Origin: a virus
Length of the DNA: 64,000 bases
Strand: one strand, 5' to 3'
IMG/VR virus record: IMGVR_UViG_3300049172_000080
Location: 31,701 to 95,700 of that record
Part shown: one piece after another, positions 36,559 through 62,280 of the stretch
Position numbering within the stretch: position 1 is the stretch's first letter
Layout: each line of letters begins with the position of its first letter
Notes under the pieces: generated by a model
The model's input: only the letters and a program-made list of their open reading frames with translations
Databases searched by the model: none
Told to the model about the DNA's origin: nothing
Position numbers and translations under genes: made by a program

Positions 36559-36598
36559 TGACTTAATTAAATCACAGCGCCCCAGGGCGGACAACCCC
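36559..36598 (-). promoter_or_regulatory. Conserved phage promoter cassette (copy f)
   Basis: Minus-sense GGGGTTGTCC-N17-TTTAAT. Palindrome TGACTTAATTAAATCA. Confidence 0.6.
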
Positions 36599-36939: not shown

Positions 36940-36978
36940 TGATTTGATTAAATCATAGGGTGTTGGGCGAGACAATAC
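36940..36978 (-). promoter_or_regulatory. Conserved phage promoter cassette (copy g), in the divergent region with parA
   Basis: Minus-sense TTGTCT-N17-TTTAAT. Palindrome TGATTTGATTAAATCA. Confidence 0.6.
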
Positions 36979-37015: not shown

Positions 37016-37810
37016 ATGGATGCATCCACCACCACGCGCATCATCGCAATCACGAACCAGAAGGGCGGCGTGGGCAAGACCGCCACGACCGTCGGCACCG
37101 CCGGAGCCCTCGCCGAGATGGGCCACCACGTCCTCATCGTCGACCTGGACCCACAGGGCCACCTCACCAACGCGGTCAAGCTGCCGAAGGCGCCCTCCGG
37201 CCCCGGCGCCGCGAACCTCTACCGCGCGCTCATCGGCGAGTACACAGACGGCGTCGCCGGTCTGGTCGTCACCCACTCCGAGCCCGCAGGCCGCATCGAC
37301 GTCATCCCGAACGCGCTCGAAATGTTCATGGCCGTCCGGGATATCGACAAGACCAAAGCTCGCGAGCACCGCCTGGCGCGGCTGCTGGCACCTGCGCGGG
37401 GCGTCTACGACTTCGTCCTCATCGACGCCCCTCCGTCCCTGGACATCCTCACGGACAACGCATTGACGGCCGCCGACGGCGTGCTGGTCCCGGTCCAGGC
37501 CGAGGACTCCAGCCTGGACGCGCTCAGCCTGCTGCTCCCGCAGATCGAAGCTGTCGACGTAGACCTGCGAGACAAGCCGCTGGAGCTATACGGCATGGTC
37601 GTCAACCTGCTGCGCCGGCCGGTGACCAAGCTCGCCGAGTCTGTCCTGGACGAGCTGAAGAAGCTGGAGGGTCTGCCCATCATCGCCACCGTGCCGCAGT
37701 CCGTCACCATCACCGAGGCGTGGCGGTACGGACGGACGACGGTGGCATATGCGCCCGACTCCGAGCACGCCGAGGCGTACCGCACCATCGCCAGGGCGGT
37801 GAGCCGGTGA
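37016..37810 (+). CDS. parA: ParA-family partition ATPase
   Basis: Deviant Walker A NQKGGVGKTATT. DLDPQ and IDAPPSL motifs. Confidence 0.85.
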   Translation: MDASTTTRIIAITNQKGGVGKTATTVGTAGALAEMGHHVLIVDLDPQGHLTNAVKLPKAPSGPGAANLYRALIGEYTDGVAGLVVTHSEPAGRIDVIPNALEMFMAVRDIDKTKAREHRLARLLAPARGVYDFVLIDAPPSLDILTDNALTAADGVLVPVQAEDSSLDALSLLLPQIEAVDVDLRDKPLELYGMVVNLLRRPVTKLAESVLDELKKLEGLPIIATVPQSVTITEAWRYGRTTVAYAPDSEHAEAYRTIARAVSR

Positions 37811-38646
37811 GCCCCAAGGAACTTCCCTCGCCGGTGCAGGGTGACGCACTGAGGGCCGTTCTCAGGACTCGGCACGTCGGCGCGGAGAAACCCAGCGACA
37901 GCACTGCGGAGCCCGCGAAGGCCGTAGCCGTGGTGGATCCGTTCGCCCCGAAGCCGCTGGACCCCGCCACCGTCACAGGCACTGCCGAGCAGCGCCTGGC
38001 CGTGTACGAGGCTGCCATCGACGGGGCGAAGGAGACCGCAGGCAACTCCATCAAAGCCGCTCGCGCCCGGTTCGTCGTGGAGGCCGGGACGGCCCTGCGC
38101 GCGATCCGCGACGAGGACGGCGGACTCTACAAGGGCTCCTACGAGACGTTCGAGGACTACGTCACCAAGCGCTGGGACATGGACCGCTCCCGCGCCTATC
38201 AGCTCATCGACGCGGTTCCGGCCATGCTCACGATGTCTAAAATTTTCGACACGGCGCCGGTCGAGTCTCAGGCCCGTGCCGTGATCCCAGTCCTGGAGAG
38301 TCACGGCGAGGCGGCCGTGCAGGAGATCGTCGCGTCCATCCGGACGGCCGGGGAGAAGGTCACGGCGAAGACCATCACGGACGCCGGGCGGCGCCTCGGC
38401 TACATCCCCGAGCAGCCGTCGGCCGACGAGGACGCGAAACCGGCAGCCCCCGCGACGGAGCACACGCCCGAACAGGCCCTGGCTATCATCCGGCTGGAGA
38501 AGGGACTGTCCGCGCTGCGCGTCGCGCACAAGGCCCTGCGCGGCACGGTGGTTCCCGATGCCCTCGCCGCCGATCACGAACGCGGCCTGGAGCTGGCCAA
38601 GCAGGTGGCGTCCCTCGCCGCGAAGATCGGCCGGCTCACGCCGTGA
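37807..38646 (+). CDS. ParB-analogue, HTH centromere-binding protein candidate
   Basis: GTGA overlap with parA. Contains the ..FEDYVTKRWDMDRSRAYQLIDA HTH. No clear ParB N-terminal nuclease-like box was seen. Confidence 0.55.
   Translation: MSPKELPSPVQGDALRAVLRTRHVGAEKPSDSTAEPAKAVAVVDPFAPKPLDPATVTGTAEQRLAVYEAAIDGAKETAGNSIKAARARFVVEAGTALRAIRDEDGGLYKGSYETFEDYVTKRWDMDRSRAYQLIDAVPAMLTMSKIFDTAPVESQARAVIPVLESHGEAAVQEIVASIRTAGEKVTAKTITDAGRRLGYIPEQPSADEDAKPAAPATEHTPEQALAIIRLEKGLSALRVAHKALRGTVVPDALAADHERGLELAKQVASLAAKIGRLTP
38234..38255. promoter_or_regulatory. parS-like AT-centred palindrome (copy 1, inside the parB-like gene)
   Basis: TGTCTAAAATTTTCGACACGGC. The core GTGTCTAAAA/TTTTCGACAC is an imperfect 20-bp palindrome. 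Confidence 0.5.
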
Positions 38647-38654
38647 CGGACACG

Positions 38655-38690
38655 ACGAAGCCCCGGGGCCAGGACGGCTCCGGGGCTTCG
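38655..38690. terminator. Bidirectional hairpin terminator
   Basis: CGAAGCCCCGG / CCGGGGCTTCG. Confidence 0.65.
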
Positions 38691-38708
38691 GGCTGTACGG
38701 GGTCAGAG

Positions 38709-38942
38709 TCACGCGGTTGGGTCGGTGGTCCCAGTCCAGTCGCTGTGCCTGAAGTTCCGGCTTCCAGGGTGCTTGCGCTTCAAGTATTCGACGGCTCCGT
38801 CGATGAGACTCTGCCTCTTGTCATCGGGGTCGTCTGCTGCGCACACGAGGTCGTGCGTCACAGTCCATGAGTAGTGATCACCAGTGACGGTGCAACTCAG
38901 CCTCCTGGGTGGCTGCACTGCTGTCTCGTATGTGTTGCGCAT
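38709..38942 (-). CDS. hypothetical protein (77 aa)
   Basis: ATG after CTGACCAGAACGAGGAACA. Confidence 0.5.
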   Translation of the reverse strand: MRNTYETAVQPPRRLSCTVTGDHYSWTVTHDLVCAADDPDDKRQSLIDGAVEYLKRKHPGSRNFRHSDWTGTTDPTA

Positions 38943-38957
38943 TGTTCCTCGTTCTGG

Positions 38958-39179
38958 TCAGAGTCCTGCGATGATGCGGGCCGCGTTGTGGTCGGTGCAG
39001 TGTCCGTGCTCACCGGCCCAGTCGGCAACGTCCAGCGGCCAGCGCTTGTCGAAGTAGCCGATGACGACGACCGCGCCCTCCTGGCGGACGGTGTGGACCT
39101 CGTCGCCGGGCCGGGTGGCCTCCTCGATGACGGCCTTCGCGTGCTCCTCGTCCAGGCAGACGAGTCGGGTCTCGGGCAT
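38958..39179 (-). CDS. hypothetical protein (73 aa)
   Basis: ATG after CTGACCAAGGAAGAGAGGAACCGTC. Confidence 0.5.
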   Translation of the reverse strand: MPETRLVCLDEEHAKAVIEEATRPGDEVHTVRQEGAVVVIGYFDKRWPLDVADWAGEHGHCTDHNAARIIAGL

Positions 39180-39200
39180 GACGGTTCCTCTCTTCCTTGG

Positions 39201-39488
39201 TCAGCGGCGCGGTGGGTGGCAGGTAGGACAGGCGTCCGCGTTGGGCATGTTGAGGACCCCGTGGGCTGCGCGAGTGGCAGCGGCCCACGGGTGGTAGCCG
39301 CCCTCGTGCTCGCGGAACGGTGCGAGCCACGCCATGTCATCGGCCACCCGGTCGAGCCAGTCCCCGAGGGGTGCCGTGTAGAACTTGCGCCCCGGGTCCA
39401 GGTTCGGATCCGGCTCGCGCATCCGATCAGCGGCCTGCTGGAGGTGTCGGGCTGCGGGCCACCTGGTCCGGGTAGCTGCCACGGTCAC
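39201..39488 (-). CDS. hypothetical protein (95 aa)
   Basis: The GTG start overlaps the upstream stop (GTGA). Only this part of the 238-aa track ORF looks coding. Confidence 0.5.
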   Translation of the reverse strand: MTVAATRTRWPAARHLQQAADRMREPDPNLDPGRKFYTAPLGDWLDRVADDMAWLAPFREHEGGYHPWAAATRAAHGVLNMPNADACPTCHPPRR

Positions 39489-40303
39489 TCCTCCCCGGCG
39501 AGCAGCTTGAGCGACTCGACGGCCGCGTAATCCACAGCCGCGAACTCGTCGCCCTCGAACGCCATCTTGTCCCCGACCAGCTCCAGGGCGTAGCGCAGCA
39601 TCGCGCGCTCGGCGGAGTTCAGCCCCGGCCGGACCCCTGTCGACGTCACGTGGACCAGCGACTTGGTGTGGCTGGGTGTACCGAGCTGCTCCCGGCCGGC
39701 GCACCACGAACACCCCTCCACGATCAGCCCGTCGTGCTCCGTGTCGTGCAGCGCCTTCACGTGCGTGCACGGGGTGAGGGAGACGGGCGGGCCAGTCTTC
39801 TCCGGGGCCTGGTCCGCCCGGATCTGCTGAGCCAGCTCGTCGAGACCGGTGGGCCGCCACGCGGGGTCCTCGACAGTCACCTCGTCGGCAATCCGCCGTA
39901 CCTCGGCCGTGGCCCACCGGGCTCCTTCGCAGAAGTCGGCGGTGCTCCCCGCCGTCTGCGGGAGGTCTTCCGAGTCGACCAACTCAGCCGTGCGGTGCAG
40001 GATGCGCGACACCAGGCCGACGGAGTCCGCGTCGTCCTCGGGGGCCGGGACGTAGCGGTACCAGCCGAGCCGGTCCATGTCCGCGCTGTCGACGAACCGG
40101 CCGCGCATCGCGGGCTCGGGCACGAACCACGGCCCGTTGCCGGGGTCGTAGAACGCGAACAGGCGCCGGTCCGGAGATAGGCGGAACTCCCATCCCTCCG
40201 GCACGGGTGGGCGGTTGGACGGAGAGCTGTCGATGTTGTGACCAAGGGCTTCACGGATCTCCCTCATGGTCATTGCGCGGCCGGTGGGCCGAGAGTCGGT
40301 CAT
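39485..40303 (-). CDS. hypothetical protein (272 aa)
   Basis: ATG (MTDSRPTG) after GACCATGGAAACGAGGAGCG. Confidence 0.55.
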   Translation of the reverse strand: MTDSRPTGRAMTMREIREALGHNIDSSPSNRPPVPEGWEFRLSPDRRLFAFYDPGNGPWFVPEPAMRGRFVDSADMDRLGWYRYVPAPEDDADSVGLVSRILHRTAELVDSEDLPQTAGSTADFCEGARWATAEVRRIADEVTVEDPAWRPTGLDELAQQIRADQAPEKTGPPVSLTPCTHVKALHDTEHDGLIVEGCSWCAGREQLGTPSHTKSLVHVTSTGVRPGLNSAERAMLRYALELVGDKMAFEGDEFAAVDYAAVESLKLLAGEE

Positions 40304-40338
40304 CGCTCCTCGTTTCCATGGTCGTCGTCTGCCTGCTG

Positions 40339-40436
40339 TGGTGGGCCCGCCCGGAGTCGAACCGGGGGCCTCGCAGAGCGCGTGGGAACCGACCAAGGTT
40401 CGCGCTCGGATGCGAGGCTGCCGCGCTACGGGGCCC
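40339..40436 (-). ncRNA. tRNA-like element (98 nt, non-canonical)
   Basis: Minus-sense GGGCCC(C)G...CCCGG-TTCGACT-CCGGG-CGGGCCC-A-CCA. It has a canonical T-arm, a 6/7-bp acceptor stem, a discriminator and an encoded CCA. The middle is aberrant: G at position 33 in the best anticodon-loop reading and a variable region of about 26 nt. Confidence 0.45.
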
Positions 40437-40500
40437 TCGTGCCGCAGGCCGGTGAGCCTGCGAGCGGTGCCGGGATCACGGCTCCCGGCCGGCCGTCGTG

Positions 40501-41388
40501 CTACAGGTTCCAATCAGCGGCAGGGTCCGGGTCAGAAACGGTCTCCCGACCGGACAGGTTCGCCGATGGCGCGGCGCTCTGCCCCGCCACCCGCGCCGCG
40601 TTGGCCATGTCGGCGTCGGTCTGCTGCGTGCCACCGCCGTTGACCAACAAGTAGAACCGGGCTTCGTCGGCTACGGTGGCGCAGTCCTTGGCCTCGGCGA
40701 CCATGAGGCCGAAGCGGCTGCGGGTGAACCGCTGGCCGACGTCGGTGAGGCCGTTGTGGCGGACGTACGGGCCGTCCTCAGTGTCCTCAGTCGTCTCCAC
40801 GAACTTGGCCGGGACCCAGGAGGCCGGGATGGCGAACTCGCTGCGGAACCACATGAGCGCCGTGGTCAACCGCTGCTTGCCGTCGATGACGGCCCACATG
40901 CCCTTGCCCGTCTCGTACGGGTCGGGGTTGCCGGCCCGGCGCCACGCCTCATTGCCCCGGTCTGCCAGGGTGACGACGTGGGTGGGCAGGCCGCGCAGCC
41001 AGGACTCCACGAGCGCGATGCGTTGGTCCAGCGTCCACACGCTGCCGCGCTGGTAAGGCGGGTCCAGCAGCAGGGCGCCGTCGTTGATGAGGTCCACCAG
41101 GCCCTTGGCCTCGCGGTAGGACGGGTTCAGGCTGGTGTGTTCCAGCGGGGCGGCGGTCTGCCGGGTCATGGCCGGTTCCTCGTTTCCGTGATCGTCGTTC
41201 CAGGGTGTGCCGTCTGGGTTTTCGGGGCGGCAGGACCGGGCCGCGTAGCGGACGTCCACGATGTCCTCCCACGGCTCCGGGTCACGCGGCCGGCGGGGGT
41301 CCCAGCGGACCGAGTCTCCCCACACTGTCCGGATCACTGCCCCGCGCTTCTGCGCGCGGAGCAGGTCCCGGGTCGTCCAGGCGGCCAT
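40501..41388 (-). CDS. DUF262 (ParB-like/GmrSD N-terminal type) domain protein
   Basis: DPPYQRGSVW and VIDGKQRLTT motifs. The ATG at 41388 overlaps the upstream stop. An internal in-frame leader plus ATG occurs at 41169. Confidence 0.6.
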   Translation of the reverse strand: MAAWTTRDLLRAQKRGAVIRTVWGDSVRWDPRRPRDPEPWEDIVDVRYAARSCRPENPDGTPWNDDHGNEEPAMTRQTAAPLEHTSLNPSYREAKGLVDLINDGALLLDPPYQRGSVWTLDQRIALVESWLRGLPTHVVTLADRGNEAWRRAGNPDPYETGKGMWAVIDGKQRLTTALMWFRSEFAIPASWVPAKFVETTEDTEDGPYVRHNGLTDVGQRFTRSRFGLMVAEAKDCATVADEARFYLLVNGGGTQQTDADMANAARVAGQSAAPSANLSGRETVSDPDPAADWNL

Positions 41389-41615
41389 CAGAGGGCGGTG
41401 ACGGTGAACTTGCCGCAGTCCACTTCGTTGTCGTCGATGAGTCGGCCGCCCAGCATGTCGTCGTTCAGGTCACCACCGATGGTTCCCCGGCTGACGTGGT
41501 TGACGTACCAGGCGAGTTCCTGGATCAGCTCGTCACGGTCGTCCGCCGTGATGATGGCGGGCTTCGCGTTGAAGTCCTGGCCGACGGGGGCGAAGTCGAC
41601 GCGGTACGTGGTCAT
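41388..41615 (-). CDS. hypothetical protein (75 aa)
   Basis: ATG after GGAAACGAGGAACCGACC. Promoter copy h lies upstream. Confidence 0.55.
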   Translation of the reverse strand: MTTYRVDFAPVGQDFNAKPAIITADDRDELIQELAWYVNHVSRGTIGGDLNDDMLGGRLIDDNEVDCGKFTVTAL

Positions 41616-41653
41616 GGTCGGTTCCTCGTTTCCGGCCGGTCTGTCCGGCTCAC

Positions 41654-41693
41654 TGATTTAATTAAATCAGAAAGTCCCGGGGCACACAACCCC
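41654..41693 (-). promoter_or_regulatory. Conserved phage promoter cassette (copy h)
   Basis: Minus-sense GGGGTTGTGT-N17-TTTAAT. Perfect palindrome TGATTTAATTAAATCA. The -35 element lies inside the hairpin GTCCCGGGG..CCCCGGGAC. Confidence 0.65.
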
Positions 41694-41726
41694 GGGACTC
41701 GATTCGATTCCTTGGTCAGCGGTAGG

Positions 41727-41927
41727 TCAGGACGTGGCGGCCGAGACGTCCAGTTTCCGCAGCCCGAGGTACAGGCCCCGGTCCAGGCCGTTGGAGTAGG
41801 TCCGCTGCACGATGACGAGGGCCCGGTCATACGGCACGCCGAGGCGGGTCAGCTCGGATATCGCCGCGTCGTTCTGGTCCTGCGCGGCAGTGAACCCGGG
41901 GTCGGCGATGCGGTCCTGCTTCGTCAC
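41727..41927 (-). CDS. hypothetical protein (66 aa)
   Basis: GTG start after GAGAGGACGACCGACC. Confidence 0.5.
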   Translation of the reverse strand: MTKQDRIADPGFTAAQDQNDAAISELTRLGVPYDRALVIVQRTYSNGLDRGLYLGLRKLDVSAATS

Positions 41928-42052
41928 GGTCGGTCGTCCTCTCTGGGGCCCCGTCGGCCGGCACGGATCATACGGCCGGAGCGGGGAATCGCTTCCTTGA
42001 TTCCTTGGTCAGATGGTGCAGGACCCCGGCCGCCGCGCCGGGGTCCGGTGAG

Positions 42053-42187
42053 TCAGGCGTCCTTGTCGGGCCGGTACTCATGGGGGCCCGGCCGGGCGAA
42101 CAGGTACCCGCACAGGTCACAGTCGCCGCTGTGGTGTTCCTTCTCCGGGTGCCCGCACTCGGCACACGGCAGCTTTCGGGTCTTCAT
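42053..42187 (-). CDS. small zinc-ribbon protein (44 aa)
   Basis: MKTRKLPCAECGH..GDCDLCG. ATG after GACCAGGAAACGAGGAACCGACT. Confidence 0.45.
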   Translation of the reverse strand: MKTRKLPCAECGHPEKEHHSGDCDLCGYLFARPGPHEYRPDKDA

Positions 42188-42239
42188 AGTCGGTTCCTCG
42201 TTTCCTGGTCTACGGTCCGTCCTGGTGACCAGTTCTGCG

Positions 42240-42431
42240 TCAGACGTTACGGGTGGAGGCCCGGCGCTCGGCGCGGTCGGCGACCCAGCGGGAGAACTCA
42301 CTTCCCGACTCGACACCGACGATCCCGGTGGTCCGGCCGGTGTCGGGGTCACTGGTGATCTCCACGCCATTGCCCTCGCGGAGCTGCTGAACGATGTACT
42401 CGGCGTTGCTGTCGGTCACTGTGTTCTGCAC
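42240..42431 (-). CDS. hypothetical protein (63 aa)
   Basis: GTG start after GACCAAGGAATGAGGAACCGGCC. Confidence 0.5.
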   Translation of the reverse strand: MQNTVTDSNAEYIVQQLREGNGVEITSDPDTGRTTGIVGVESGSEFSRWVADRAERRASTRNV

Positions 42432-42492
42432 GGCCGGTTCCTCATTCCTTGGTCTGCGGTCCGTCTGTCCGGGACGCCGGCTGGTGTCCCGA

Positions 42493-42532
42493 TGAATTAA
42501 TTAAACCATGGGTTGGGGCGAGACACAACCCC
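42493..42532 (-). promoter_or_regulatory. Conserved phage promoter cassette (copy i)
   Basis: Minus-sense GGGGTTGTGT-N17-TTTAAT. Palindrome TGAATTAATTAAACCA. Confidence 0.6.
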
Positions 42533-42540
42533 GGACACGA

Positions 42541-42575
42541 CGAAGCCCCGGGCCGTAGGAGGCTCCGGGGCTTCG
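42541..42575. terminator. Hairpin terminator (CACGACGAAGCCCCGG family)
   Basis: CGAAGCCCCGG / CCGGGGCTTCG. Confidence 0.65.
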
Positions 42576-42595
42576 CTGCTGTGCGTCTCAGGTCG

Positions 42596-43111
42596 TCAGC
42601 GCGGGCTGTGCTTCCGCGCGAACTCGGCGGCGGCGTCCAGCAGGCCGCGCACCTCGTCCCAGGTGCGTCCCCGCTTCTTCACCCACGGCGTGCTTTGCGC
42701 GGACGGGAAACCGGTGTAGGCACACACCATGGCGTTCAGGACCCGGTCAGCCACTGTCTGGGTGTCGGTGTCGCCGGACGTGTGAGTCACTTCGTACATC
42801 GCCTCCGTCAGGGTCATCGGGCCCGGGGCCGCGACGGCGGACCGCAGGAAGCGCAGCCCGGCCAGCAGCAGCGCCTTGACCGACATCGATTCGTCGACCT
42901 CGGAGAGCTGCGGGTCCTCGGGGCAGTTGCGCGCCCAGCCGCGCACCGCAAGCATCGTGGAGACGTCCTCGATGTACTCGGACACGCCATGGCCGGTCAC
43001 GGGCTCCCCGGACCGTCCGGTCCAGAAGCCTTCGGAGGCGGTGTACTCGGAGGCCCTGTCCGTGACGTCGGCGGAGCTGAAGCTACGGGCAGGGGTGGTG
43101 GTGTCGGTCAT
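42596..43111 (-). CDS. hypothetical protein (171 aa)
   Basis: ATG after GACCAAGGAATGAGGAACCGCC. Confidence 0.55.
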   Translation of the reverse strand: MTDTTTPARSFSSADVTDRASEYTASEGFWTGRSGEPVTGHGVSEYIEDVSTMLAVRGWARNCPEDPQLSEVDESMSVKALLLAGLRFLRSAVAAPGPMTLTEAMYEVTHTSGDTDTQTVADRVLNAMVCAYTGFPSAQSTPWVKKRGRTWDEVRGLLDAAAEFARKHSPR

Positions 43112-43146
43112 GGCGGTTCCTCATTCCTTGGTCTGATCGAGCACAA

Positions 43147-43185
43147 TGGATTAACTAAACCAAGATCCAGGGGTGTGCGCAAGAC
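43147..43185 (-). promoter_or_regulatory. Conserved phage promoter cassette (copy j)
   Basis: Minus-sense TTGCGC-N17-TTTAGT. Palindrome TGGATTAACTAAACCA. Confidence 0.55.
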
Positions 43186-43192
43186 CGCACGA

Positions 43193-43227
43193 CGAAGCCC
43201 CGGGCCGCGTACGGCTCCAGGGCTTCG
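43193..43227. terminator. Hairpin terminator (same family, imperfect)
   Basis: CGAAGCCCCGG / CCAGGGCTTCG. Confidence 0.55.
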
Positions 43228-43246
43228 CTGCTGTGCTGTCGGATCG

Positions 43247-44230
43247 TCAGGCCGCCAGCACCTCCTCGCGCTCCCCGATGCCCGACGCGGCCCGGACGGC
43301 CGCGAGGGCCAGGGCCTTAGGAACGGCGTTGCCAACCTGGAGGTACTGCTGCCCGGACTTCCCCTGGAAAACGAGGCCCGGCCGGAACCCCTGAAGCGCG
43401 GCGCACTCAGCCACGGTCGGCCGCAGGTGTTTGCACGGCTCGTCCGGGTCGTCGTGGTCCCGGCCGCACAGAGGCATGCGGTCCTGCCAGGCGCTGGTGC
43501 CCATGGCCCGTCGCATCGCCTGCCGGGAACCGTTGCCGAACGGCTCCGCCCCGCCGGTGTAGACCCCGCCGCCGGTGACCGCCGGGGACGGGCGCCGGGT
43601 GTACCCCCAGCCGATGACATCCGCCATGGCGACGAGCGGCGGCTGCCCGGGCCCGCCGTGCGTCGGCGCGGGCAGGGCCACCTCCCGCACCCGGGAGGCG
43701 AGCAGGATGGCACGGGGCCGATTCTGCCCGGCACCGTGCCGCTCAGCGTGCAGGACGCCGGCCGCCGTGCTGTAGCCCCAGCCGTCCAGGATCTCCGCCA
43801 CGTGCGCCCACACGGGGAGCACGGCGTCGACCTGCTCCAGGACCACCCACTGGGGGCGCAGAGCGTACAGCCATCGCACGGGCTCGGCGGTCAGGATGGA
43901 CCTGGGGTCCAGGCACCCGGCCCCGTGCACCGTGCGGGTGTCCCGGCCCTGGGCCAAGTCGTCGATTGCCTCGTGGACCAGTGGCAGATCAGTAAGCCCC
44001 AGTTTCCGGCCGGACTTCCCGAACGGCGGGCAGGGCGGCCCACCCACCAGTGCCTCGGTACCGGCGGACGAGTCCACGGGGTACTCGGTGACGTCGCACT
44101 GAGTGGTCCAGTGCTTCGCCATCTTGCGCGTTGCGCACGTAGCCGGGTCCATCTCGAACCCCCGGCTCTGCATCCCGAGACTGCGCAGGACTTCGCTGAA
44201 GCCGATGCCGGCGAATATCTCCGTGATCAT
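43247..44230 (-). CDS. DNA (cytosine-5) methyltransferase
   Basis: Motif I IFAGIGF, motif IV GGPPCPPFG, and QVGNAVP. ATGA overlap with the upstream gene. Confidence 0.85.
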   Translation of the reverse strand: MITEIFAGIGFSEVLRSLGMQSRGFEMDPATCATRKMAKHWTTQCDVTEYPVDSSAGTEALVGGPPCPPFGKSGRKLGLTDLPLVHEAIDDLAQGRDTRTVHGAGCLDPRSILTAEPVRWLYALRPQWVVLEQVDAVLPVWAHVAEILDGWGYSTAAGVLHAERHGAGQNRPRAILLASRVREVALPAPTHGGPGQPPLVAMADVIGWGYTRRPSPAVTGGGVYTGGAEPFGNGSRQAMRRAMGTSAWQDRMPLCGRDHDDPDEPCKHLRPTVAECAALQGFRPGLVFQGKSGQQYLQVGNAVPKALALAAVRAASGIGEREEVLAA

Positions 44231-44724
44231 TCCTCGTCCTCCAGCTCGTCGTCGGCGGTGCCGCCGTTCCAGCACCGCGCGCAGTACCAGCCGGACGTCA
44301 CCGGCCCGCGCTGGGACTTCAGCCCGGGGTGGGTCTCCTGCGTCACCTCGAACAGCCGCTCCGTGCCGTGGCTGCACGCCTCGCACCGCAGGACGGCGAT
44401 GGACTGGTGGACCAAGCCGCGCCGGCGCAGCTCGTCGCGCAGGGCCCGTGTGTAGGCGTAGACCTCTCGCTCGGCCGCTTGGTCGGGCAGCCTGCCGATC
44501 ACCTCGGCGAGCTGGTACCGACGCAGCAACTGGTCGGCGGTCACGCGCTTCCAGTGGGCGCCGCCGAGACCGGAGTACCGCCGGGCTGCCTGCCTCAGCG
44601 CGTCGAACTCCTCAGCCGTCGGGGCGACGTAGCCCTCCGGCGGCCAGACCTTCACGCGGGGCGCGTAGCCACCGGACTGCTTCGCCTTCAGCCGGGCCCG
44701 GGGCGACAGAGTGTCGACTGCCAT
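44227..44724 (-). CDS. hypothetical zinc-ribbon protein (165 aa)
   Basis: CEAC...CARC pairs and an acidic tail. Confidence 0.55.
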   Translation of the reverse strand: MAVDTLSPRARLKAKQSGGYAPRVKVWPPEGYVAPTAEEFDALRQAARRYSGLGGAHWKRVTADQLLRRYQLAEVIGRLPDQAAEREVYAYTRALRDELRRRGLVHQSIAVLRCEACSHGTERLFEVTQETHPGLKSQRGPVTSGWYCARCWNGGTADDELEDEE

Positions 44725-44727
44725 GGG

Positions 44728-45183
44728 TCACCGGTCCCGCTTGACGGAGTGGAGGGTGAACTGCCAGTTGGCGCGCGGGCCGTGCTCCGTCCGGACCTTC
44801 TGGAGCGCCAGGTACCGGGCCTCCAGCTCCGTACGTGCGTTGACGAACACCGGCACCAGCTCGTCGCCGCTGCCGTCGGCCGCCACGGCCTTGTGCTTAA
44901 GCGTGACGGTCCACCGGCGGTAGACGACGTGGCGCGGGAAGACCTGCGACGGCCGGTACCGCCGGGTCTGGTTCTCGCCTTCCGGGGCGCAGCGCATGTG
45001 CAGGCCGTCGGTGCGGACGTAGACGGCCGGGAACTCGATCTCGTTGCCGCCCTCGTCGAACGTGCGGATGGTCACCGGCTGTCCGGGGGTCGCCTGGCCG
45101 GGGCGCAGGTGGACCAGTCCGGGACGGACGCTGGACTGCCGGGCGGGCCGGCGTACCGGCCTCTCCACCGAGTAGCTGGTCAT
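44728..45183 (-). CDS. hypothetical protein (151 aa)
   Basis: ATG after GACCAAGGAACCAGGAAAGTAGGACCC. Confidence 0.55.
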   Translation of the reverse strand: MTSYSVERPVRRPARQSSVRPGLVHLRPGQATPGQPVTIRTFDEGGNEIEFPAVYVRTDGLHMRCAPEGENQTRRYRPSQVFPRHVVYRRWTVTLKHKAVAADGSGDELVPVFVNARTELEARYLALQKVRTEHGPRANWQFTLHSVKRDR

Positions 45184-45226
45184 GGGGTCCTACTTTCCTG
45201 GTTCCTTGGTCTACGACCTAACCGAT

Positions 45227-45270
45227 CGATTTAGCTAAATCATACCTGTGCCCCGGGGTGAGGACAACCC
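45227..45270 (-). promoter_or_regulatory. Conserved phage promoter cassette (copy k, 22-nt spacer variant)
   Basis: Minus-sense GGGGTTGTCC-N22-TTTAGC. Palindrome CGATTTAGCTAAATCA. Confidence 0.5.
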
Positions 45271-45299
45271 CGGGGCACAGATTCAGCGGTGACGCCTGG

Positions 45300-45515
45300 T
45301 CAGCGTCGGGCGGTCCGACGCCGTTGGGCGAGCAGACTGACCGGCAATCCGATGACGACCGGGCCCAACAGCAGTGCGGTGCAGGCGACGACCAGACGGG
45401 AAGTGCTGAGCCCGGACGAGGGGTGTGAGAGAACGACGGCGGTGAACACGGCGAACCCCGCGACGAAGCCGAGGATAGGTCCGCCGTAGGCGAGGAGCGT
45501 GAAGCTGCGGGACAT
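45300..45515 (-). CDS. small membrane protein (71 aa)
   Basis: Two hydrophobic segments. ATG after GGAGGAACCGACC. Confidence 0.5.
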   Translation of the reverse strand: MSRSFTLLAYGGPILGFVAGFAVFTAVVLSHPSSGLSTSRLVVACTALLLGPVVIGLPVSLLAQRRRTARR

Positions 45516-45575
45516 GGTCGGTTCCTCCAGGGTCAACAGGCGAAGGCCCCGCCGGGTGGCGGGGCCGGGGGTCGG

Positions 45576-45731
45576 TCAGTCCTCGTCCGGGACGTGCACG
45601 CGGAAGCTGTCGGAGGCCATGTCCATCTTCACCTCGGCCTGGCCGCCGGCGTCCCGGATCTCCTGAGCTTTCTCGTCGGCTGGCCGGGAGCCGTAGCGGT
45701 GGCTGACGGGAGACGTGAACGCAATACCCAT
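45576..45731 (-). CDS. small hypothetical protein (51 aa)
   Basis: Hand-translated (MGIAFTSPVSHRYG..). ATG after GACCAAGGAATGAGGAATCGATC. Confidence 0.35.
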   Translation of the reverse strand: MGIAFTSPVSHRYGSRPADEKAQEIRDAGGQAEVKMDMASDSFRVHVPDED

Positions 45732-45815
45732 GATCGATTCCTCATTCCTTGGTCGGTGAGGCTGAGCCGCCTCGGGGACGCCACCGGCGCGGTGCCGATG
45801 ACGTTCACGTGAGGC

Positions 45816-46103
45816 TCAGACGGCCGACGTGCCGGGGCCGGTAGGCGGCTTCGCGCTGGAGGTGCGCATCCACTCGCGGTAGTCGTCCCTGACCATGCCG
45901 TCTCCGTCCGGCCGGTTCAGCGCCGTGGCTGCCGCATTGGCGAGCTGCGCGTGCACCAGGGCCTCGGTCAGGTCCGCCATGCGGCGGGCCAGGCGCTCAT
46001 CGGTGGAGAGGTGAGCCTTCCATCCGGTGTCCGCGTCCATCCACGTACCGGCTTGCTGCGTGAGCTGCTCGGCCTCGCGGTAGTGCTCGGGTCCGGTAGC
46101 CAT
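45816..46103 (-). CDS. hypothetical protein (95 aa)
   Basis: ATG after AAGGAGAACCGACACG. Confidence 0.5.
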   Translation of the reverse strand: MATGPEHYREAEQLTQQAGTWMDADTGWKAHLSTDERLARRMADLTEALVHAQLANAAATALNRPDGDGMVRDDYREWMRTSSAKPPTGPGTSAV

Positions 46104-46193
46104 CGTGTCGGTTCTCCTTGTGTCTCGGGTCAGAGGCTGAGCTGCCTCACAGGGGCCACGGTCGGACGTCCCGTCCGCGACCCCGAGCGGTGC

Positions 46194-46511
46194 TCAGACG
46201 CTGGTGGGATAGGTGAACCAGTGGCCGGTGGCCTTGGTGTGCTCGCCCACGGCGAGGCCGCATCCAATCGCGCAGGCCGGCTCGACGGGCTCGGGCGTGG
46301 GCGCCTTCTGGTCGTCCGGGAGGGCGGTCCACTCCAGGTCCACGATGCCGTCGATGATCTCGTCTTTGCGCCACGACTCCAGCGGGTTGGCGCTCCAGAC
46401 GTGGCCCATCCGGCGGTACAGCGCGCACAGTTCGGCCTTGCGCATCTTGCCGAGTTCTTGCCCCCGGCGGAGCCAGTGCTGGTGCTTCGTTTCCGGGCCC
46501 GGGTTGCTCAT
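46194..46511 (-). CDS. hypothetical protein (105 aa)
   Basis: ATG after AGAGAGGAACCGACACG. Confidence 0.5.
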   Translation of the reverse strand: MSNPGPETKHQHWLRRGQELGKMRKAELCALYRRMGHVWSANPLESWRKDEIIDGIVDLEWTALPDDQKAPTPEPVEPACAIGCGLAVGEHTKATGHWFTYPTSV

Positions 46512-46572
46512 CGTGTCGGTTCCTCTCTGCTCGGGCCGGGGCCGTCGACCGGCGGCCCCGGGTTGGACTGTG

Positions 46573-46995
46573 TCAGGCGTTGACCAGCTCGCGCGCCGGG
46601 ACGGCGACGGCCGGGCGGACCGTCTGGCGGACGGTCACCGGGGCGCCGTGCGCGAGGACCATGAGCACGACGGCTGCGCGAAATTCCGCCTTGCGCGGCT
46701 TGTAGTTGCGCAGGAGCACCTGGACCTGGGCGGAGGTGAAGTGGTTCACCTTGCGCAGCCGGGCCGCGCGGCCGTCGGTGGTGCAGTGCGTGCGGGCGAC
46801 CTTGACGGGCTCCATCCCGATCCGCTTGGCCACGGAGCGCAGGCCGTTCGCCACACCGGCCGCCGTTCCGGCATCCACACCGGCGGCGATGGCGTGCGTC
46901 GCGAGGCTGCGGCCCTTGCGCAGGGACCGGGCGAAGCGGGTGGCGGCGGCGCGCTGGGCGACGATCTGGCGGCGGAGGCGGGAGGTCTTCGTCAT
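46573..46995 (-). CDS. hypothetical basic protein (140 aa)
   Basis: ATG after GACCAAGGAAAGCAGGGACCGACC. Confidence 0.5.
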   Translation of the reverse strand: MTKTSRLRRQIVAQRAAATRFARSLRKGRSLATHAIAAGVDAGTAAGVANGLRSVAKRIGMEPVKVARTHCTTDGRAARLRKVNHFTSAQVQVLLRNYKPRKAEFRAAVVLMVLAHGAPVTVRQTVRPAVAVPARELVNA

Positions 46996-47047
46996 GGTCG
47001 GTCCCTGCTTTCCTTGGTCCGTCGTTCCGGCCGGTCGGCCGTTCCGA

Positions 47048-47087
47048 TGGATTAACTAAATCATAGCTGTCGGGCGGGCACAACCCC
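47048..47087 (-). promoter_or_regulatory. Conserved phage promoter cassette (copy l)
   Basis: Minus-sense GGGGTTGTGC-N17-TTTAGT. Palindrome TGGATTAACTAAATCA. Confidence 0.6.
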
Positions 47088-47097
47088 GGACGCGAAA

Positions 47098-47127
47098 GAG
47101 CCCCGACCCAGTTGTGGGTCGGGGCTC
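47098..47127. terminator. Hairpin terminator
   Basis: GAGCCCCGACCCA / TGGGTCGGGGCTC. Confidence 0.6.
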
Positions 47128-47142
47128 ATACGGCGAGGCCAG

Positions 47143-47751
47143 TCAGTGGTCGACGCGCGCCCAGGCGGGCGCCGCCGGCTCGTGCTCGCGGTAGCCGATC
47201 ACCCGGTCCAGCAGGGGCCACAGCCGGGTGTCCCGGCCCCACACGGGGTCGATGACTGCCAGGGCGACACCGTGGCGCGTCAGCTCCCGGCGGACCTCAC
47301 GCCCGATGCAGGGCAGCTCCGCGTGGCGCTGGAGGCGCCGTGGACGGCCGCCGAAACCCGTGTGCGCCTCGTCGCCCCAGCGGGTCACCGTGAGGCCGTG
47401 ACGCGGGCCTATGGACCGCCCCGGGCCGTACGCGGTGACGATGAGTCCGGCGCCCCGGGCCCGGCGGATGAGCGGGCCGAGGAGCGGGTTCCGGCAGGAG
47501 ATCCAGCCTTCCACGGCGGCTCGCTGCTCCCAGGGTCGGCCGTCGTACGCCGTGCCGGTCTCGCCGGGCTGCGAGCAGGTAGTCACCCAGCCGCGTCGGT
47601 TCAGCCGGGCGAGGACCGGCACCAGGTGCGCGGTCTCCTCGTCGGGGCCAGCCGAGCAGCCGGGCTGCGTGGCGATGCGCCCCTCCAGCCAGCCAGCCAT
47701 CGCCGCGCCGAGTTCGTCGACGCTGCGGACGTCACGCCAGATGCGGTCCAC
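47143..47751 (-). CDS. hypothetical protein (202 aa)
   Basis: GTG start 2 nt after the upstream stop. Trp/Arg-rich conserved-looking core. Confidence 0.5.
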   Translation of the reverse strand: MDRIWRDVRSVDELGAAMAGWLEGRIATQPGCSAGPDEETAHLVPVLARLNRRGWVTTCSQPGETGTAYDGRPWEQRAAVEGWISCRNPLLGPLIRRARGAGLIVTAYGPGRSIGPRHGLTVTRWGDEAHTGFGGRPRRLQRHAELPCIGREVRRELTRHGVALAVIDPVWGRDTRLWPLLDRVIGYREHEPAAPAWARVDH

Positions 47752-47753
47752 GG

Positions 47754-48047
47754 TCAGCCTGCCTCGATGGCGTCGGAGAAGTCCAGGAACCGGCGCCCCG
47801 TGAGGTACCGCACGATGGCCTTGTTGTAGCGGCGGGTGACGGCCGGGGTGAGTTCGGTCTGACCCCCGTCGGCGGTCTTTCCGTTGGGTGCGAGGACGAT
47901 CCGGCTGCCTTCGGTCTCGGAGGCGTCGACCCAGACCGGCACCGTGCGCTGCCACCAGGCCAGCGGACGCGGGAAAGGCGCTGCGCCCTGGCGGACAAGG
48001 TCCACGTCGATACGGATCTTCGTTTGGTCGATGACGATGCGGTCCAT
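47754..48047 (-). CDS. hypothetical protein (97 aa)
   Basis: ATG (MDRIVIDQ) after CTGACCAAGGAACTGAGGAAGCGAGGGGTC. Confidence 0.5.
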   Translation of the reverse strand: MDRIVIDQTKIRIDVDLVRQGAAPFPRPLAWWQRTVPVWVDASETEGSRIVLAPNGKTADGGQTELTPAVTRRYNKAIVRYLTGRRFLDFSDAIEAG

Positions 48048-48062
48048 GACCCCTCGCTTCCT

Positions 48063-48113
48063 CAGTTCCTTGGTCAGGGTGGTGCAGGGCCCCGGAATCG
48101 CCAACCGGCTCCG
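48063..48113 (-). repeat. 51-bp direct repeat, copy A (class-2 upstream element)
   Basis: 49 of 51 nt identical to 48389-48439. Minus-sense CGGAGCCGGTTGGCGATTCCGGGGCCCTGCACCACCCTGACCAAGGAACTG. Confidence 0.7.
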
Positions 48114-48126
48114 GGGCCCGGGATGG

Positions 48127-48372
48127 TCAGCGCAGGTACGGGAGCGGGTCCATCGCGTCGCCGTCAGTCCACACCCACGTGTCGAACTTCTCCTCGCCCA
48201 TGCGCTCCCCCAGCTCGTCCATCAGCCAGCCCCGCGTCATGGCGAGTTCCTCGCTCATCGGCACCGTCTCGGTAAGCAGCCACGTCACGCTCAGGGCCTC
48301 GTTCGTGAGACGGCTCAGCTTTTCCCGTGCGGCGGCTTCCAGTCGCTGGCCCTCGGGCGTCTTGGCTCGCAT
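48127..48372 (-). CDS. hypothetical protein (81 aa)
   Basis: ATG after CTGACCACGGAACTGAGGAATCGAGGAAGCC. Confidence 0.5.
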   Translation of the reverse strand: MRAKTPEGQRLEAAAREKLSRLTNEALSVTWLLTETVPMSEELAMTRGWLMDELGERMGEEKFDTWVWTDGDAMDPLPYLR

Positions 48373-48388
48373 GGCTTCCTCGATTCCT

Positions 48389-48439
48389 CAGTTCCGTGGT
48401 CAGGGTGGTGCAGGGCCCCGGAATCGCCAACCGACTCCG
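48389..48439 (-). repeat. 51-bp direct repeat, copy B
   Basis: See copy A. Same position relative to the downstream gene start. Confidence 0.7.
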
Positions 48440-48452
48440 AGGCCTGGGGTGG

Positions 48453-48689
48453 TCAAGCCCGGCTCGGGCACTTGTGCGGCAGTCGGGCGAGCACGTAGTA
48501 CCGGGGCTGCGGGTTCTCGCGCGTGGCGTATCGACCGCACTTCAGCACGTCGGCCAGATACCACTTGCCGGTCTTGGCGGACTGCTTCCACGCGAGTTTG
48601 TCGTCCGCACACCGCTTGCAGGTGACCAACCGGCCGGTGACCTCCGCTGCGTTGTTCGGTGGCTGTCCGTCAGCGGTGAAGTGCTCCAT
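48453..48689 (-). CDS. hypothetical protein (78 aa)
   Basis: ATG after GAGGAGACGCAGCC. Contains CKRC..C Cys residues. Confidence 0.5.
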   Translation of the reverse strand: MEHFTADGQPPNNAAEVTGRLVTCKRCADDKLAWKQSAKTGKWYLADVLKCGRYATRENPQPRYYVLARLPHKCPSRA

Positions 48690-48715
48690 GGCTGCGTCTC
48701 CTCGGTCGGCGTCTA

Positions 48716-48756
48716 TGACTTAATTAAATCATAGGTCTGCCGACGGGACAACCCCC
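48716..48756 (-). promoter_or_regulatory. Conserved phage promoter cassette (copy m)
   Basis: Minus-sense GGGGGTTGTCC-N17-TTTAAT. Palindrome TGACTTAATTAAATCA. Confidence 0.6.
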
Positions 48757-48795
48757 AGACGCGCCGGAGCCCGGGACCGCAGGGCCCCGGGCTCC

Positions 48796-48818
48796 GTGTC
48801 TAAAATTTTCGACACGGC
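48796..48818. promoter_or_regulatory. parS-like AT-centred palindrome (copy 2, intergenic)
   Basis: GTGTCTAAAATTTTCGACACGGC, 22 nt identical to 38234-38255. Preceded by the hairpin GGAGCCCGGG..CCCGGGCTCC. Confidence 0.5.
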
Positions 48819-48820
48819 CG

Positions 48821-49051
48821 TCAGGCACGGTCCACGCGGAATGCGTAGCCGGACGACTCGTGCTTCAGCGTTTCGCCCAGCGCCTGCCGGACCAGGCCTG
48901 CCGCGAAGGTCCGGGCCTCGCCGCGCGGCACGCGGGAGTTGTCCATCAGGCAGTACGCGATGGCGACCTCCACCTCGCGCAGCGTGCGCAGGGCCGTCGG
49001 GTTGGTCCGCTCGGTGCCGTCGGGGAGTGTGCGGGTCAGGGAGTACTGCAT
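48821..49051 (-). CDS. hypothetical protein (76 aa)
   Basis: ATG after GACCAAGGAATCGAGGAACCCCTG. Confidence 0.5.
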   Translation of the reverse strand: MQYSLTRTLPDGTERTNPTALRTLREVEVAIAYCLMDNSRVPRGEARTFAAGLVRQALGETLKHESSGYAFRVDRA

Positions 49052-49096
49052 CAGGGGTTCCTCGATTCCTTGGTCTCCGGTGGAAGGCTGGCCCGG

Positions 49097-49384
49097 TTAC
49101 CGGAACCAGCCGCGCTTCTTCTTCGGGGCAGCTTCGGCCTCGGCTTTGTTCGCGGTCTCTCGCAGCCCCCGGCCCCGACCACGGAGCCGATCGGCCTCCC
49201 GCTGCGCACGGGCCGCCTTCGCCGGGTCGCTGTAGTCACGGCCCTGGCGTCCGTAGACGTCGGCCGTCATCTGCTGCCGCTCCGCTTCCTGCTCGGCGCT
49301 ATATGCCATCTGCCGCAGGGCGGGGGCTTGCCGGGCGGCGTACTGCTGCTCCGGCGTCTGCATGTCCTTGAACTTCCGGCCCAT
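49097..49384 (-). CDS. hypothetical basic protein (95 aa)
   Basis: ATG after GACCAAGGAATCGAGGAAGCG. Confidence 0.5.
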   Translation of the reverse strand: MGRKFKDMQTPEQQYAARQAPALRQMAYSAEQEAERQQMTADVYGRQGRDYSDPAKAARAQREADRLRGRGRGLRETANKAEAEAAPKKKRGWFR

Positions 49385-51314: not shown

Positions 51315-51354
51315 TGACTTAATTAAATCATAGCTCCGGGGGAGGCACAACCCC
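51315..51354 (-). promoter_or_regulatory. Conserved phage promoter cassette (copy n)
   Basis: Minus-sense GGGGTTGTGC-N17-TTTAAT. Palindrome TGACTTAATTAAATCA. Confidence 0.6.
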
Positions 51355-55955: not shown

Positions 55956-55995
55956 TGATTTAATTAAACCATCAGTCCGGCGACCGCGCAACCCC
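55956..55995 (-). promoter_or_regulatory. Conserved phage promoter cassette (copy o)
   Basis: Minus-sense GGGGTTGCGC-N17-TTTAAT. Palindrome TGATTTAATTAAACCA. Confidence 0.6.
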
Positions 55996-56617: not shown

Positions 56618-56803
56618 TCAGCGGTGGTCCTTCCACTCGAAGAACAGGATGCAGACACCGATCGCAAGGAGGGCCCCACCAACCTCGCCGAGTGCCACGT
56701 GCATCGGAGTGGGCGCGAAACCCAGGGCCCCGAGGGCCACGGCGAGCACAACAACTCCAGCCGCCGCCAGAGTCAGGCCCGATACGGTCCAGCTTGTACG
56801 CAT
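56618..56803 (-). CDS. small membrane protein (61 aa)
   Basis: Two TM segments. ATG after GACCAAGGAACGAGGAAGTC. Confidence 0.45.
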   Translation of the reverse strand: MRTSWTVSGLTLAAAGVVVLAVALGALGFAPTPMHVALGEVGGALLAIGVCILFFEWKDHR

Positions 56804-61472: not shown

Positions 61473-61508
61473 TGATTTCCTTAAATCATCGTACACGCTA
61501 CCTGTCCC
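61473..61508 (-). promoter_or_regulatory. Conserved promoter cassette variant (copy q)
   Basis: Palindrome variant TGATTTCCTTAAATCA. The -35 position is occupied by a GGGACA repeat unit. Confidence 0.5.
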
Positions 61509-62235: not shown

Positions 62236-62280
62236 TGATTTCCTTAAATCATCCTACCCGGGTCGGCTCGGCACAACCCC
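62236..62280 (-). promoter_or_regulatory. Conserved promoter cassette variant (copy r, 22-nt spacer)
   Basis: Palindrome TGATTTCCTTAAATCA. Minus-sense GGGGTTGTGC lies 22 nt upstream of TTTAAG. Confidence 0.5.

Follow-up and report, generated by a model that had tools for sequence, protein, structure and literature searches.

We found that a 64-kb window of viral DNA (the whole stretch analysed, 64,000 nucleotides, positions 31,701 to 95,700 of IMG/VR record IMGVR_UViG_3300049172_000080) carries two AT-centred dyads, parS-1 within a parB-like gene and parS-2 10.5 kb away, which are very probably the parS (centromere-like loading) sites of a ParA-ParT-parS (ParATS) system that would secure the stable inheritance of a ~95-kb Streptomyces phage-plasmid as an extrachromosomal prophage. 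The evidence consists of the sites themselves, their conservation, selection acting on the DNA, homology of the parB-like product to ParT of the Streptomyces plasmid SCP2, and positional identity with a validated parS. A sequence-only reading of the same DNA had proposed the repeat as the partition site of a ParA/ParB-like pair, and this proposal is supported by the ParT homology, by the codon-aligned validated parS and by the conservation of both copies. To our knowledge, ParT, described in 2025, is the only ParB-like partition protein found to spread from parS without cytidine triphosphate (CTP). The finding sets ParATS on Streptomyces phage-plasmids of ~92-98 kb with a conserved two-site layout. 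New are the occurrence of ParATS on a phage-plasmid clade, the conserved second, extragenic parS (with three sites in plasmid pS1D4-14.2), a specificity class with a AAAATTTT core, and a family-wide codon scaffold; a phage-plasmid context is absent from the neighbourhood data of the ParT paper (PMC12260392).

The repeat and its two dyads

The 22-mer TGTCTAAAATTTTCGACACGGC was present in exact copies at 38234-38255 and 48797-48818, both on the + strand, as first described, and its recurrence, which had been judged very unlikely by chance, had an expectation of 0 in 100 dinucleotide-preserving shuffles (window GC 0.65-0.72 throughout). The accompanying description of a 20-bp dyad with one mismatch was correct for copy 2 (48796-48815, GTGTCTAAAA/TTTTCGACAC) and incorrect for copy 1, in which the outermost base is A and not G (ATGTCT...), so that the dyad there is only 18 bp long, again with one mismatch. 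The functional unit is the 18-20 bp dyad, and the identity past it (..GGC, the last 2-3 bases) is probably fortuitous flank, because ..GGC is not conserved in relatives. When the window was scanned with a position weight matrix built from 13 site variants, exactly two sites were found, parS-1 with 38.5 bits and parS-2 with 38.3 bits (null: maximum score per 64 kb, mean 4.3, peak 14.3 bits), and beyond the two dyads no score in the window lay above the null median. A scan of the whole replicon for further copies had been suggested earlier; for the window, the count is exactly two.

Copy 1 is in frame in the open reading frame (ORF) 37807-38646, where ATG TCT AAA ATT TTC GAC ACG encodes MSKIFDT (residues 143-149), and it directly follows the predicted helix-turn-helix (HTH) of the product, which agrees with its earlier placement just after this motif. 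Copy 2 is intergenic, as had been stated, and lies 5 nt past the stop codon of a 76-amino-acid gene (48821-49051, - strand), followed in the direction of transcription by a G+C hairpin. Its earlier description as lying after a terminator applies to the + strand only; the surrounding genes are on the - strand, and their transcription therefore reaches copy 2 before the hairpin. RNA folding of 48740-48830 (- strand) gave -53.9 kcal/mol with a z of -3.8; the hairpin (48763-48795) has no T-tract, a simple terminator scan gave no call there, and it is probably the terminator of the upstream - strand transcription unit. A + strand ORF at 48796-49371 (191 amino acids), antisense to the real 76-amino-acid gene, is spurious and not for annotation: its opening MSKIFDTA is due solely to the sequence that parS-2 shares with parS-1.

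A ParA gene followed by a ParT-like gene

The parA product matched Pfam AAA_31 (2.5e-41), CbiA (2.3e-20) and the PHROG ParA-like family (6e-50), and aligned with SCP2 ParA in BLASTP at E 8e-19 and 34% identity; the G+C fraction at third codon positions (GC3) of the gene is 0.90. Its stop codon overlaps the start of the parT-like gene by 4 nt (GTGA), and homologs of the 279-residue product of the latter were located directly downstream of parA in 11/11 replicons.

The 37807-38646 product itself had no Pfam, PHROG or NCBIfam match, and a PDB sequence profile search was also empty. The ParT family was found through the literature, and membership was then tested directly against the fetched SCP2 sequence (L084). 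BLASTP against SCP2 ParT (SCP2.04c) gave E 5e-15, with an alignment of 125 residues at 38% identity that spans helix alpha2 and the HTH domain, and a hidden Markov model (HMM) of the family of the window protein scored SCP2 ParT at 73.6 bits; the BLASTP alignment pairs MSKIFDT of the window with VSPIGDI of ParT. Neither the window protein nor 30 relatives had a ParB_N/ParBc or any other Pfam match, even at E<=5.

The AlphaFold2 (AF2) model of the 279-residue protein is all-helical with a short N-terminal region and a mean predicted local distance difference test (pLDDT) score of 77. It comprises an N-peptide (MSPKELPSP), a helix at 11-24, long helices at 60-105, the HTH at 115-146 (H115-123/H127-146), a linker at ~207-216 and C-terminal helices at 221-277. 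Residues 1-7 and 27-41 and the linker 207-216 have a pLDDT below 50, helix 11-24 has blocks of 58 and 48, and helix 60-105 has 10-residue blocks averaging 75-91 (82 and 75 in the middle). This layout agrees with the description of ParT (PMC12260392), namely N-peptide, low-confidence alpha1, long alpha2, HTH, linker and helical C-terminal domain. Residue G87 of ParT was not used as a membership criterion because it is not conserved in the family of the window protein.

On this comparison we assign the 37807-38646 product to ParT and not to canonical ParB, and, with no CTPase/ParB_N domain present, the system is therefore ParATS rather than ParABS. The earlier designation as ParB-like thus holds in the broad sense of a ParT homolog and does not extend to a canonical ParB. 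A canonical ParB (type Ia or chromosomal ParABS) was ruled out, as there is no ParB_N CTPase domain with its GxxR motif and the PDB profile search returned no ParB. Type Ib partition (a ribbon-helix-helix protein with iterated repeats) was ruled out as well, the protein being 279 residues long with an all-helical HTH fold, and no parS or other repeat array being present next to the par operon of the window.

Some members of the ParT-domain superfamily (P0143, P0189, P0210, P0223, P0187) were fused to DNA methyltransferase domains (Dam, N6_N4_Mtase), and P0187 had a sub-threshold ParB_N match (E 1.9e-4, 21.9 bits, cut-off 26.3), which suggests that the ParT domain has been reused as a site-specific DNA-targeting module outside partition.

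Comparison with SCP2 and other partition systems

Previous work on SCP2 renamed SCP2.04c as ParT and described it as ParB-like but devoid of the CTPase domain (Sukhoverkov et al., PNAS 2025; PMC12260392), with 41 homologs listed by sequence and 71 by structure. In that study, chromatin immunoprecipitation sequencing of ParT peaked on parT itself, biolayer interferometry showed binding of an 18-bp inverted repeat inside the coding sequence with a dissociation constant of 680 nM, the protein diffused from parS and accumulated on closed DNA without nucleoside triphosphate, its N-terminal peptide activated ParA with the first three residues of MSRR being essential, and ParT was genetically validated as a partition protein (PMC12260392). 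The oligonucleotides in its supporting information give the parS as (CG)TGTCTCCAATTGGAGACA(TC). We located this validated parS, TGTCTCCAATTGGAGACA, at SCP2 3566-3583, in the codons GTG TCT CCA ATT GGA GAC ATC (VSPIGDI); 13 of its 18 bases are identical in the window dyad, the arms TGTCT...GACA are shared, and the codon columns are aligned.

The window and SCP2 thus have in common a homologous CTPase-less protein of the same predicted architecture, a ParA gene directly upstream and an in-gene 18-bp parS at aligned codons. However, the window replicon is a ~95-kb phage-plasmid and SCP2 a 31-kb conjugative plasmid; the core is AAAATTTT with residues K/F in the window and CCAATTGG with residues P/G in SCP2; the window clade keeps a second, extragenic parS 10.5 kb away; and the N-terminal peptide is MSPKE in the window and MSRR in SCP2 ParT. 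A parS inside parB1 has also been reported for SCP1 parS1 (2026 paper, PMC13245405), so that, together with SCP2 parT, the in-gene parS is an established arrangement in Streptomyces plasmids, as the sequence-only reading had said.

In SCP2 (AL645771) a second parS-like palindrome, GTCCCCAATTGGGGAC, was found at 14885-14900, 11.3 kb from the validated parS. It is in frame in SCP2.15c (ACG TCC CCA ATT GGG GAC, TSPIGD), whose product is no ParT homolog by HMM, and the two-site spacing of SCP2 resembles that of the window.

Canonical type-I ParABS (Spo0J/ParB, SCP1 ParB1) shares with the window a Walker ParA, an HTH binder and a palindromic parS that may lie in-gene, and it loads at parS and then spreads, as the window protein is predicted to do. 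It differs in that the window protein has no detectable ParB_N/CTPase, so any spreading would be CTP-independent as in ParT, and in that the window parS has 18 bp with an AT centre, whereas the canonical parS is of the 16-bp TGTTNCACGTGAAACA type. The plasmid-prophage N15, in which the centromere sites IR1-4 of SopAB are dispersed among phage genes (PMC7205306, citing Ravin & Lane 1999), is similar in having several single palindromes scattered among phage genes with no tandem array; however, it has a canonical SopB/ParB, a proteobacterial host and four sites, none of them reported inside sopB, and the window has two sites (three in pS1D4-14.2), one of which is inside the gene of its own binder. 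KorB of the IncP plasmid RK2 is a sliding clamp of the ParB family that also acts as a global repressor, with its operators dispersed (summarised in PMC12260392, ref. 30 there). It resembles the window system in that a ParB-like protein has several palindromic sites dispersed over a single replicon, so that partition might be coupled to gene silencing; it differs in being a CTPase ParB, and in the window there are only two sites, for which a regulatory role would be hypothetical.

Linkage of the palindrome to the par operon in distant homologs

Homologs at 26-40% identity were found by tblastn on 65 plasmid records, and in nine further conventional plasmids the homolog was always directly downstream of the ParA gene. 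A 16-24 bp AT-centred palindrome was present inside the par operon or at most 400 bp from it in 11/11 replicons with the homolog, and in 5/11 it was the sole one in 28-41 kb. Its position varied (Table 1), and such linkage to the operon without a fixed place is more in keeping with a cis-acting centromere than with an operator. One of these plasmids, L022, has the same core as the window, GTGTCGAAAATTTTCGACAC, ~70 bp upstream of parA; in a comparison of helix and site covariation, it shares the site of the window yet has a rather different recognition helix. The conjugative Streptomyces plasmids L017 and L023 have GTCGCCAATTGGCGAC at five dispersed places each, of which one is just upstream of parA and none is in-gene, a distribution reminiscent of KorB operators.

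Conservation and selection at the DNA level

Among ~10 related phage-plasmids, the parS-1 dyad was kept in the parT-like gene of every covering locus except L081, and the parS-2 dyad was found 0-220 bp downstream of the homolog of the 76-amino-acid gene in 10/10 genomes sampled there, with differing flanks. An exact-pattern scan of IMG/VR found the dyad in related phage-plasmid contigs at those two places only.

The codons TCT-AAA-ATT of parS-1 are three consecutive rare codons (usage 4.8%, 7.8% and 6.3% in this replicon), and the probability of the codon string given the peptide MSKIFDT is about 9e-5. Gene 10635-13622 provided a natural control: its T-S-K-I-F-G stretch (10890-10907) is spelled with the ordinary codons TCC-AAG-ATC-TTC and lacks a site. 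At the homologous place in pS1D4-14.2, V-S-K-I-F-G is encoded with TCG-AAA-ATT-TTC, resulting in a third dyad, GTGTCGAAAATTTTCGGCAT (L003 6712-6731; record 56712-56731), which looks like a parS gained or lost by silent changes. In L082 (GTGTCCAAAATTTTGGAC) G..C has been swapped for C..G, a compensatory change that leaves the dyad symmetric and replaces F by L in the protein. A C-to-G change (TGTGGA...) is common to both copies of L080 (10409-10428 and 20422-20441) and S-K of ParT has become W-R, so both sites and the protein seem to have changed together. These rare codons, compensatory changes and the natural control show that the dyad is under selection at the DNA level.

A codon scaffold across the ParT family

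The embedded palindromes share the same alignment columns, ~13 residues past a conserved Tyr of the putative recognition helix, and have the form TCN-NNA-ATT-NNN-GAN, that is, Ser-x-Ile-y-Asp/Glu (Table 1). The y codon is forced by complementarity, comp(x2)comp(x1)N, and the predicted pairs are K/F-L, E/S, T/V, P/G, A/A, G/P and Q/C-W. An exhaustive profile search gave 9,482 clusters at 50% identity with the domain at E<=1e-3. Among the best 150 representatives of these clusters, 145 were gap-free at the scaffold columns and 65 had the scaffold; an allowed (x,y) pair was present in 63/65 of these non-redundant S-x-I-y-[DE] relatives, compared with 15.0 +/- 3.2 after shuffling (maximum 28 in 10,000 shuffles), and in 50/80 of the remaining rows an allowed pair was kept around a centre codon one mutation away from ATT. 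The scaffold was verified on DNA for SCP2, L018, L019, L024, L082, L086, L087 and L090. In both Actinomycetota and Bacteroidota, putative embedded parS sites follow one fixed codon scaffold; one cyanobacterial plasmid has an odd-centred variant of it.

With a fixed scaffold and complementarity, the central specificity bases of the parS of a ParT are therefore predictable from two of its own residues, the readable pairs being K/F, K/L, E/S, T/V, P/G, A/A, G/P and Q/C. This is a clear case of a protein sequence constrained by its own binding site, and predicted orthogonal ParT-parS pairs could readily be drawn from the 9,482 clusters for use in incompatibility studies and in DNA-labelling tools. 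Such a reading rule was not found in the ParT literature (main text, and supplement searched by term), and may be noted elsewhere.

Proposed mechanism

We suggest that a dimer of the 279-residue protein would recognise the 18-bp inverted repeat TGTC(T/G)AAAATTTTCGACA through its middle-domain HTH, one half-site per subunit, and that binding would help an N-terminal gate, made up of the long helix, to close. The resulting clamp would then leave parS and diffuse onto the flanking DNA without CTP, and repeated loading would lead to a locally high level of ParT, whose basic N-terminal peptides would stimulate the ATPase of ParA (37016-37810), leading to Brownian-ratchet segregation of the prophage-plasmid. 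The replicon is three times as large as SCP2, and parS-2, as a second loading site, would extend or strengthen its zone of ParT coating.

Several observations weigh against this interpretation. Binding, sliding, ParA stimulation and stabilisation are predicted from a homolog at 38% identity over 125 residues; a Foldseek comparison of the AF2 model with PDB gave nothing significant, ParB middle domains included (best E 1.9), and the BFVD matches to the model were weak (E 2e-3 and above). The N-terminal peptide of the window, MSPKELPSP, is similar in pattern to MSRRSLALPS of ParT and has one basic residue in its first five. The matrix scan covered the 64-kb window, and ~32 kb of the replicon lies outside it. 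L081 has lost the in-gene core, and therefore parS-1 is not indispensable. The role of parS-2 is predicted, with a second loading site as the simplest candidate, and SCP2 ParT caused no DNA bridging or condensation in vitro (PMC12260392).

An extension of the ParATS interpretation would be that the two loading sites bracket ~10.5 kb of - strand early genes, that the ParT coat serves segregation of the prophage and, in a KorB-like manner, also silences or insulates part of the lytic or early programme, coupling partition to the maintenance of lysogeny, and that the in-gene site locks protein and centromere together as specificity diverges. We regard this extension as rather improbable, though less so than any of the following alternatives.

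Alternative explanations

It is unlikely that the same protein and dyads have a mainly transcriptional role, as a KorB-like clamp, repressor or roadblock silencing or insulating the 10.5 kb of - strand early genes in the prophage, with partition secondary or served by other sites. Such a role would suit the position of parS-2 at a transcription-unit boundary (stop codon, dyad, hairpin, then a promoter-associated TTAATTAA site), the five dispersed intergenic, KorB-operator-like palindromes of L017 and L023, the many ParT-like proteins without a neighbouring ParA (PMC12260392), and the precedent of N15, with its centromere sites among phage genes. However, the gene was translationally coupled to ParA in 11/11 of the first-examined replicons, SCP2 ParT acts in partition by genetic test, and an in-gene site 1.2 kb downstream of the promoter would be a poor operator. 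Moreover, the site is found upstream, internally, at the 3' end, downstream or at a distance, which is a better fit to a position-independent centromere, and the parA promoter region has a general TTAATTAA-type site and not the dyad.

Binding of the dyad by another factor (a prophage repressor, an Lsr2-type AT-binding nucleoid protein or a host or phage HTH protein), with only an incidental link to par, is very unlikely. Lsr2-like proteins would be drawn to a AAAATTTT core in 69% G+C DNA, Lsr2 genes are present on some related plasmids, and the window has other DNA-binding proteins such as the GntR/UTRA regulator 5580-6257. Nevertheless, such binding is disfavoured because the conserved positions include the G+C-containing arms GTGTC/GACAC and because in other family members the palindromes, whose AT centre is only 4 bp (CCAATTGG), differ between plasmids and are always tied to the parT homolog. 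In addition, ParT was shown to bind the homologous site of SCP2 both in vivo and in vitro (PMC12260392), and as repressor operators the abundant TTAATTAA palindromes are the more likely candidates.

That the direct copies are recombination sites (att, dif or lox-like) of the tyrosine recombinase 1633-2796, or insertion scars with target duplication, is scarcely credible. They are direct repeats 10.5 kb apart with inverted arms around an AT-rich centre, and the replicon encodes such a recombinase; yet attachment sites and an insertion scar were both rejected because the two copies occupy the same internal positions in ~10 diverged genomes, with no deletion or absence of the 10.5-kb segment seen, and because the parT frame is continuous and full-length relative to its homologs. 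The central AAAATTTT is moreover symmetric and confers no directionality, the single copy of conventional plasmids is tied to parAT and not to a recombinase gene, and the sites lie 35-47 kb from the recombinase gene.

The idea that the dyads have no function at the DNA level, copy 1 following from a conserved peptide (MSKIFDT; MSKIFDTAPVES is indeed nearly invariant in the close family) and copy 2 being a chance or gene-converted duplicate, can be dismissed almost entirely, as a purely protein-driven origin is refuted by the rare codons, by the common codons used for SKIF elsewhere in the window, by the conservation of the non-coding copy 2 in 10 genomes, and by the reverse-complement rule obeyed by the residue pairs around Ile (63/65), which no protein-level constraint predicts.

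A second palindrome family

A second AT-rich palindrome family, TGAYTTAATTAARTCA, had 15 sites in the window at <=3 mismatches (0 expected), most of them 40-75 bp upstream of start codons and including the parA promoter region, and ~12 in pS1D4-14.2. As a centromere, these abundant TTAATTAA palindromes were rejected, being promoter-proximal and not tied to parT homologs in other plasmids. The TGAYTTAATTAARTCA sites are probably prophage-repressor operators or a phage promoter element; the GntR/UTRA regulator 5580-6257, flanked by three of them, is, speculatively, a candidate binder.

The phage-plasmid replicon

Gene calling based on GC3, together with PHROG and Pfam scans, showed that the window has a tailed-phage layout, with parA central and a long - strand arm carrying small genes. 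No match to the window was found among phage records by megablast and tblastn; the closest annotated relative was the 98.8-kb plasmid pS1D4-14.2 (L003) of Streptomyces sp. S1D4-14, with an organisation identical in layout. The 279-residue protein had 77 close clusters, many on contigs of 89-102 kb, the contig of the window itself being 95.7 kb. From the phage layout and the relatives on 89-102 kb contigs, we therefore place the window in a clade of ~92-98 kb Streptomyces phage-plasmids. The pZL12/pSLE1-type phage-plasmids were considered as the same system and rejected, because they carry a canonical ParB (PMC4487206).

Table 1. Coordinates of the partition genes, dyads, palindromes and phage genes in the window and in related replicons
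Feature	Location	Strand	Details
parS-1	38233..38252	strandless	ATGTCTAAAATTTTCGACAC; 18-bp core 38234-38251, TGTCTAAAATTTTCGACA; in parT codons 143-149 (M S K I F D T)
parS-2	48796..48815	strandless	GTGTCTAAAATTTTCGACAC; 18-bp core 48797-48814; intergenic
G+C-rich hairpin	48763..48795	-	13-bp stem abutting parS-2; outside the dyad, context only
parA	37016..37810	+	Walker-type partition ATPase, 264 aa, no N-terminal HTH extension
parT-like gene	37807..38646	+	279 aa; ParB-like predicted centromere-binding protein without CTPase domain
Tyrosine recombinase	1633-2796	-	PHROG/Pfam scans
Portal	8795-10651	+	PHROG/Pfam scans
Major capsid protein	13800-15590	+	PHROG/Pfam scans
Tape measure	22513-25890	+	PHROG/Pfam scans
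Scaffold codons	window		TCT AAA ATT TTC GAC
Scaffold codons	L082		TCC AAA ATT TTG GAC
Scaffold codons	L018		TCA GAA ATT TCT GAC
Scaffold codons	L019		TCC ACA ATT GTG GAA
Scaffold codons	L024		TCC CCA ATT GGG GAT
Scaffold DNA	L086, Actinomadura		CTGTCCCCAATTGGGGACAG
Scaffold DNA	L090		another Streptomyces plasmid
Scaffold DNA	L087, Bacteroidota plasmid pEMTOL01, 34% G+C		TTTGTCGGAAATTTCCGACAAA
Scaffold DNA	L088, Anabaena (cyanobacterial plasmid)		odd-centred version
Palindrome upstream of parA	L017, L020, L022, L023
Palindrome inside gene	window, L001, L018, L019, L024		residues ~131-143
Palindrome at gene 3' end	L021
Palindrome just downstream of gene	L016
GTCGCCAATTGGCGAC copies	L017 7700, 19622, 22473, 23621, 25759
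GTCGCCAATTGGCGAC copies	L023 5342, 19116, 21937, 23094, 25273
TGAYTTAATTAARTCA sites	1248-1263, 3517-3532, 4575-4590, 6344-6359, 36559-36574, 36940-36955, 41654-41669, 42493-42508, 45227-45242, 47048-47063, 48716-48731, 51315-51330, 55956-55971, 61473-61488, 62236-62251

Between the two parS sites, the gene 40501-41388 (- strand) encodes a 295-residue protein with a GmrSD_N (DUF262-type) domain (3.4e-14) and homologs in related phage-plasmids, which may be a prophage-borne defence or anti-modified-DNA nuclease module. In the structural region, gene 10635-13622 (+ strand) encodes a 995-residue protein with an N-terminal RNA-ligase-like segment (phrog_2659, 2.6e-29), which also matches PHROGs annotated as portal protein and head maturation protease, an unusual fusion.

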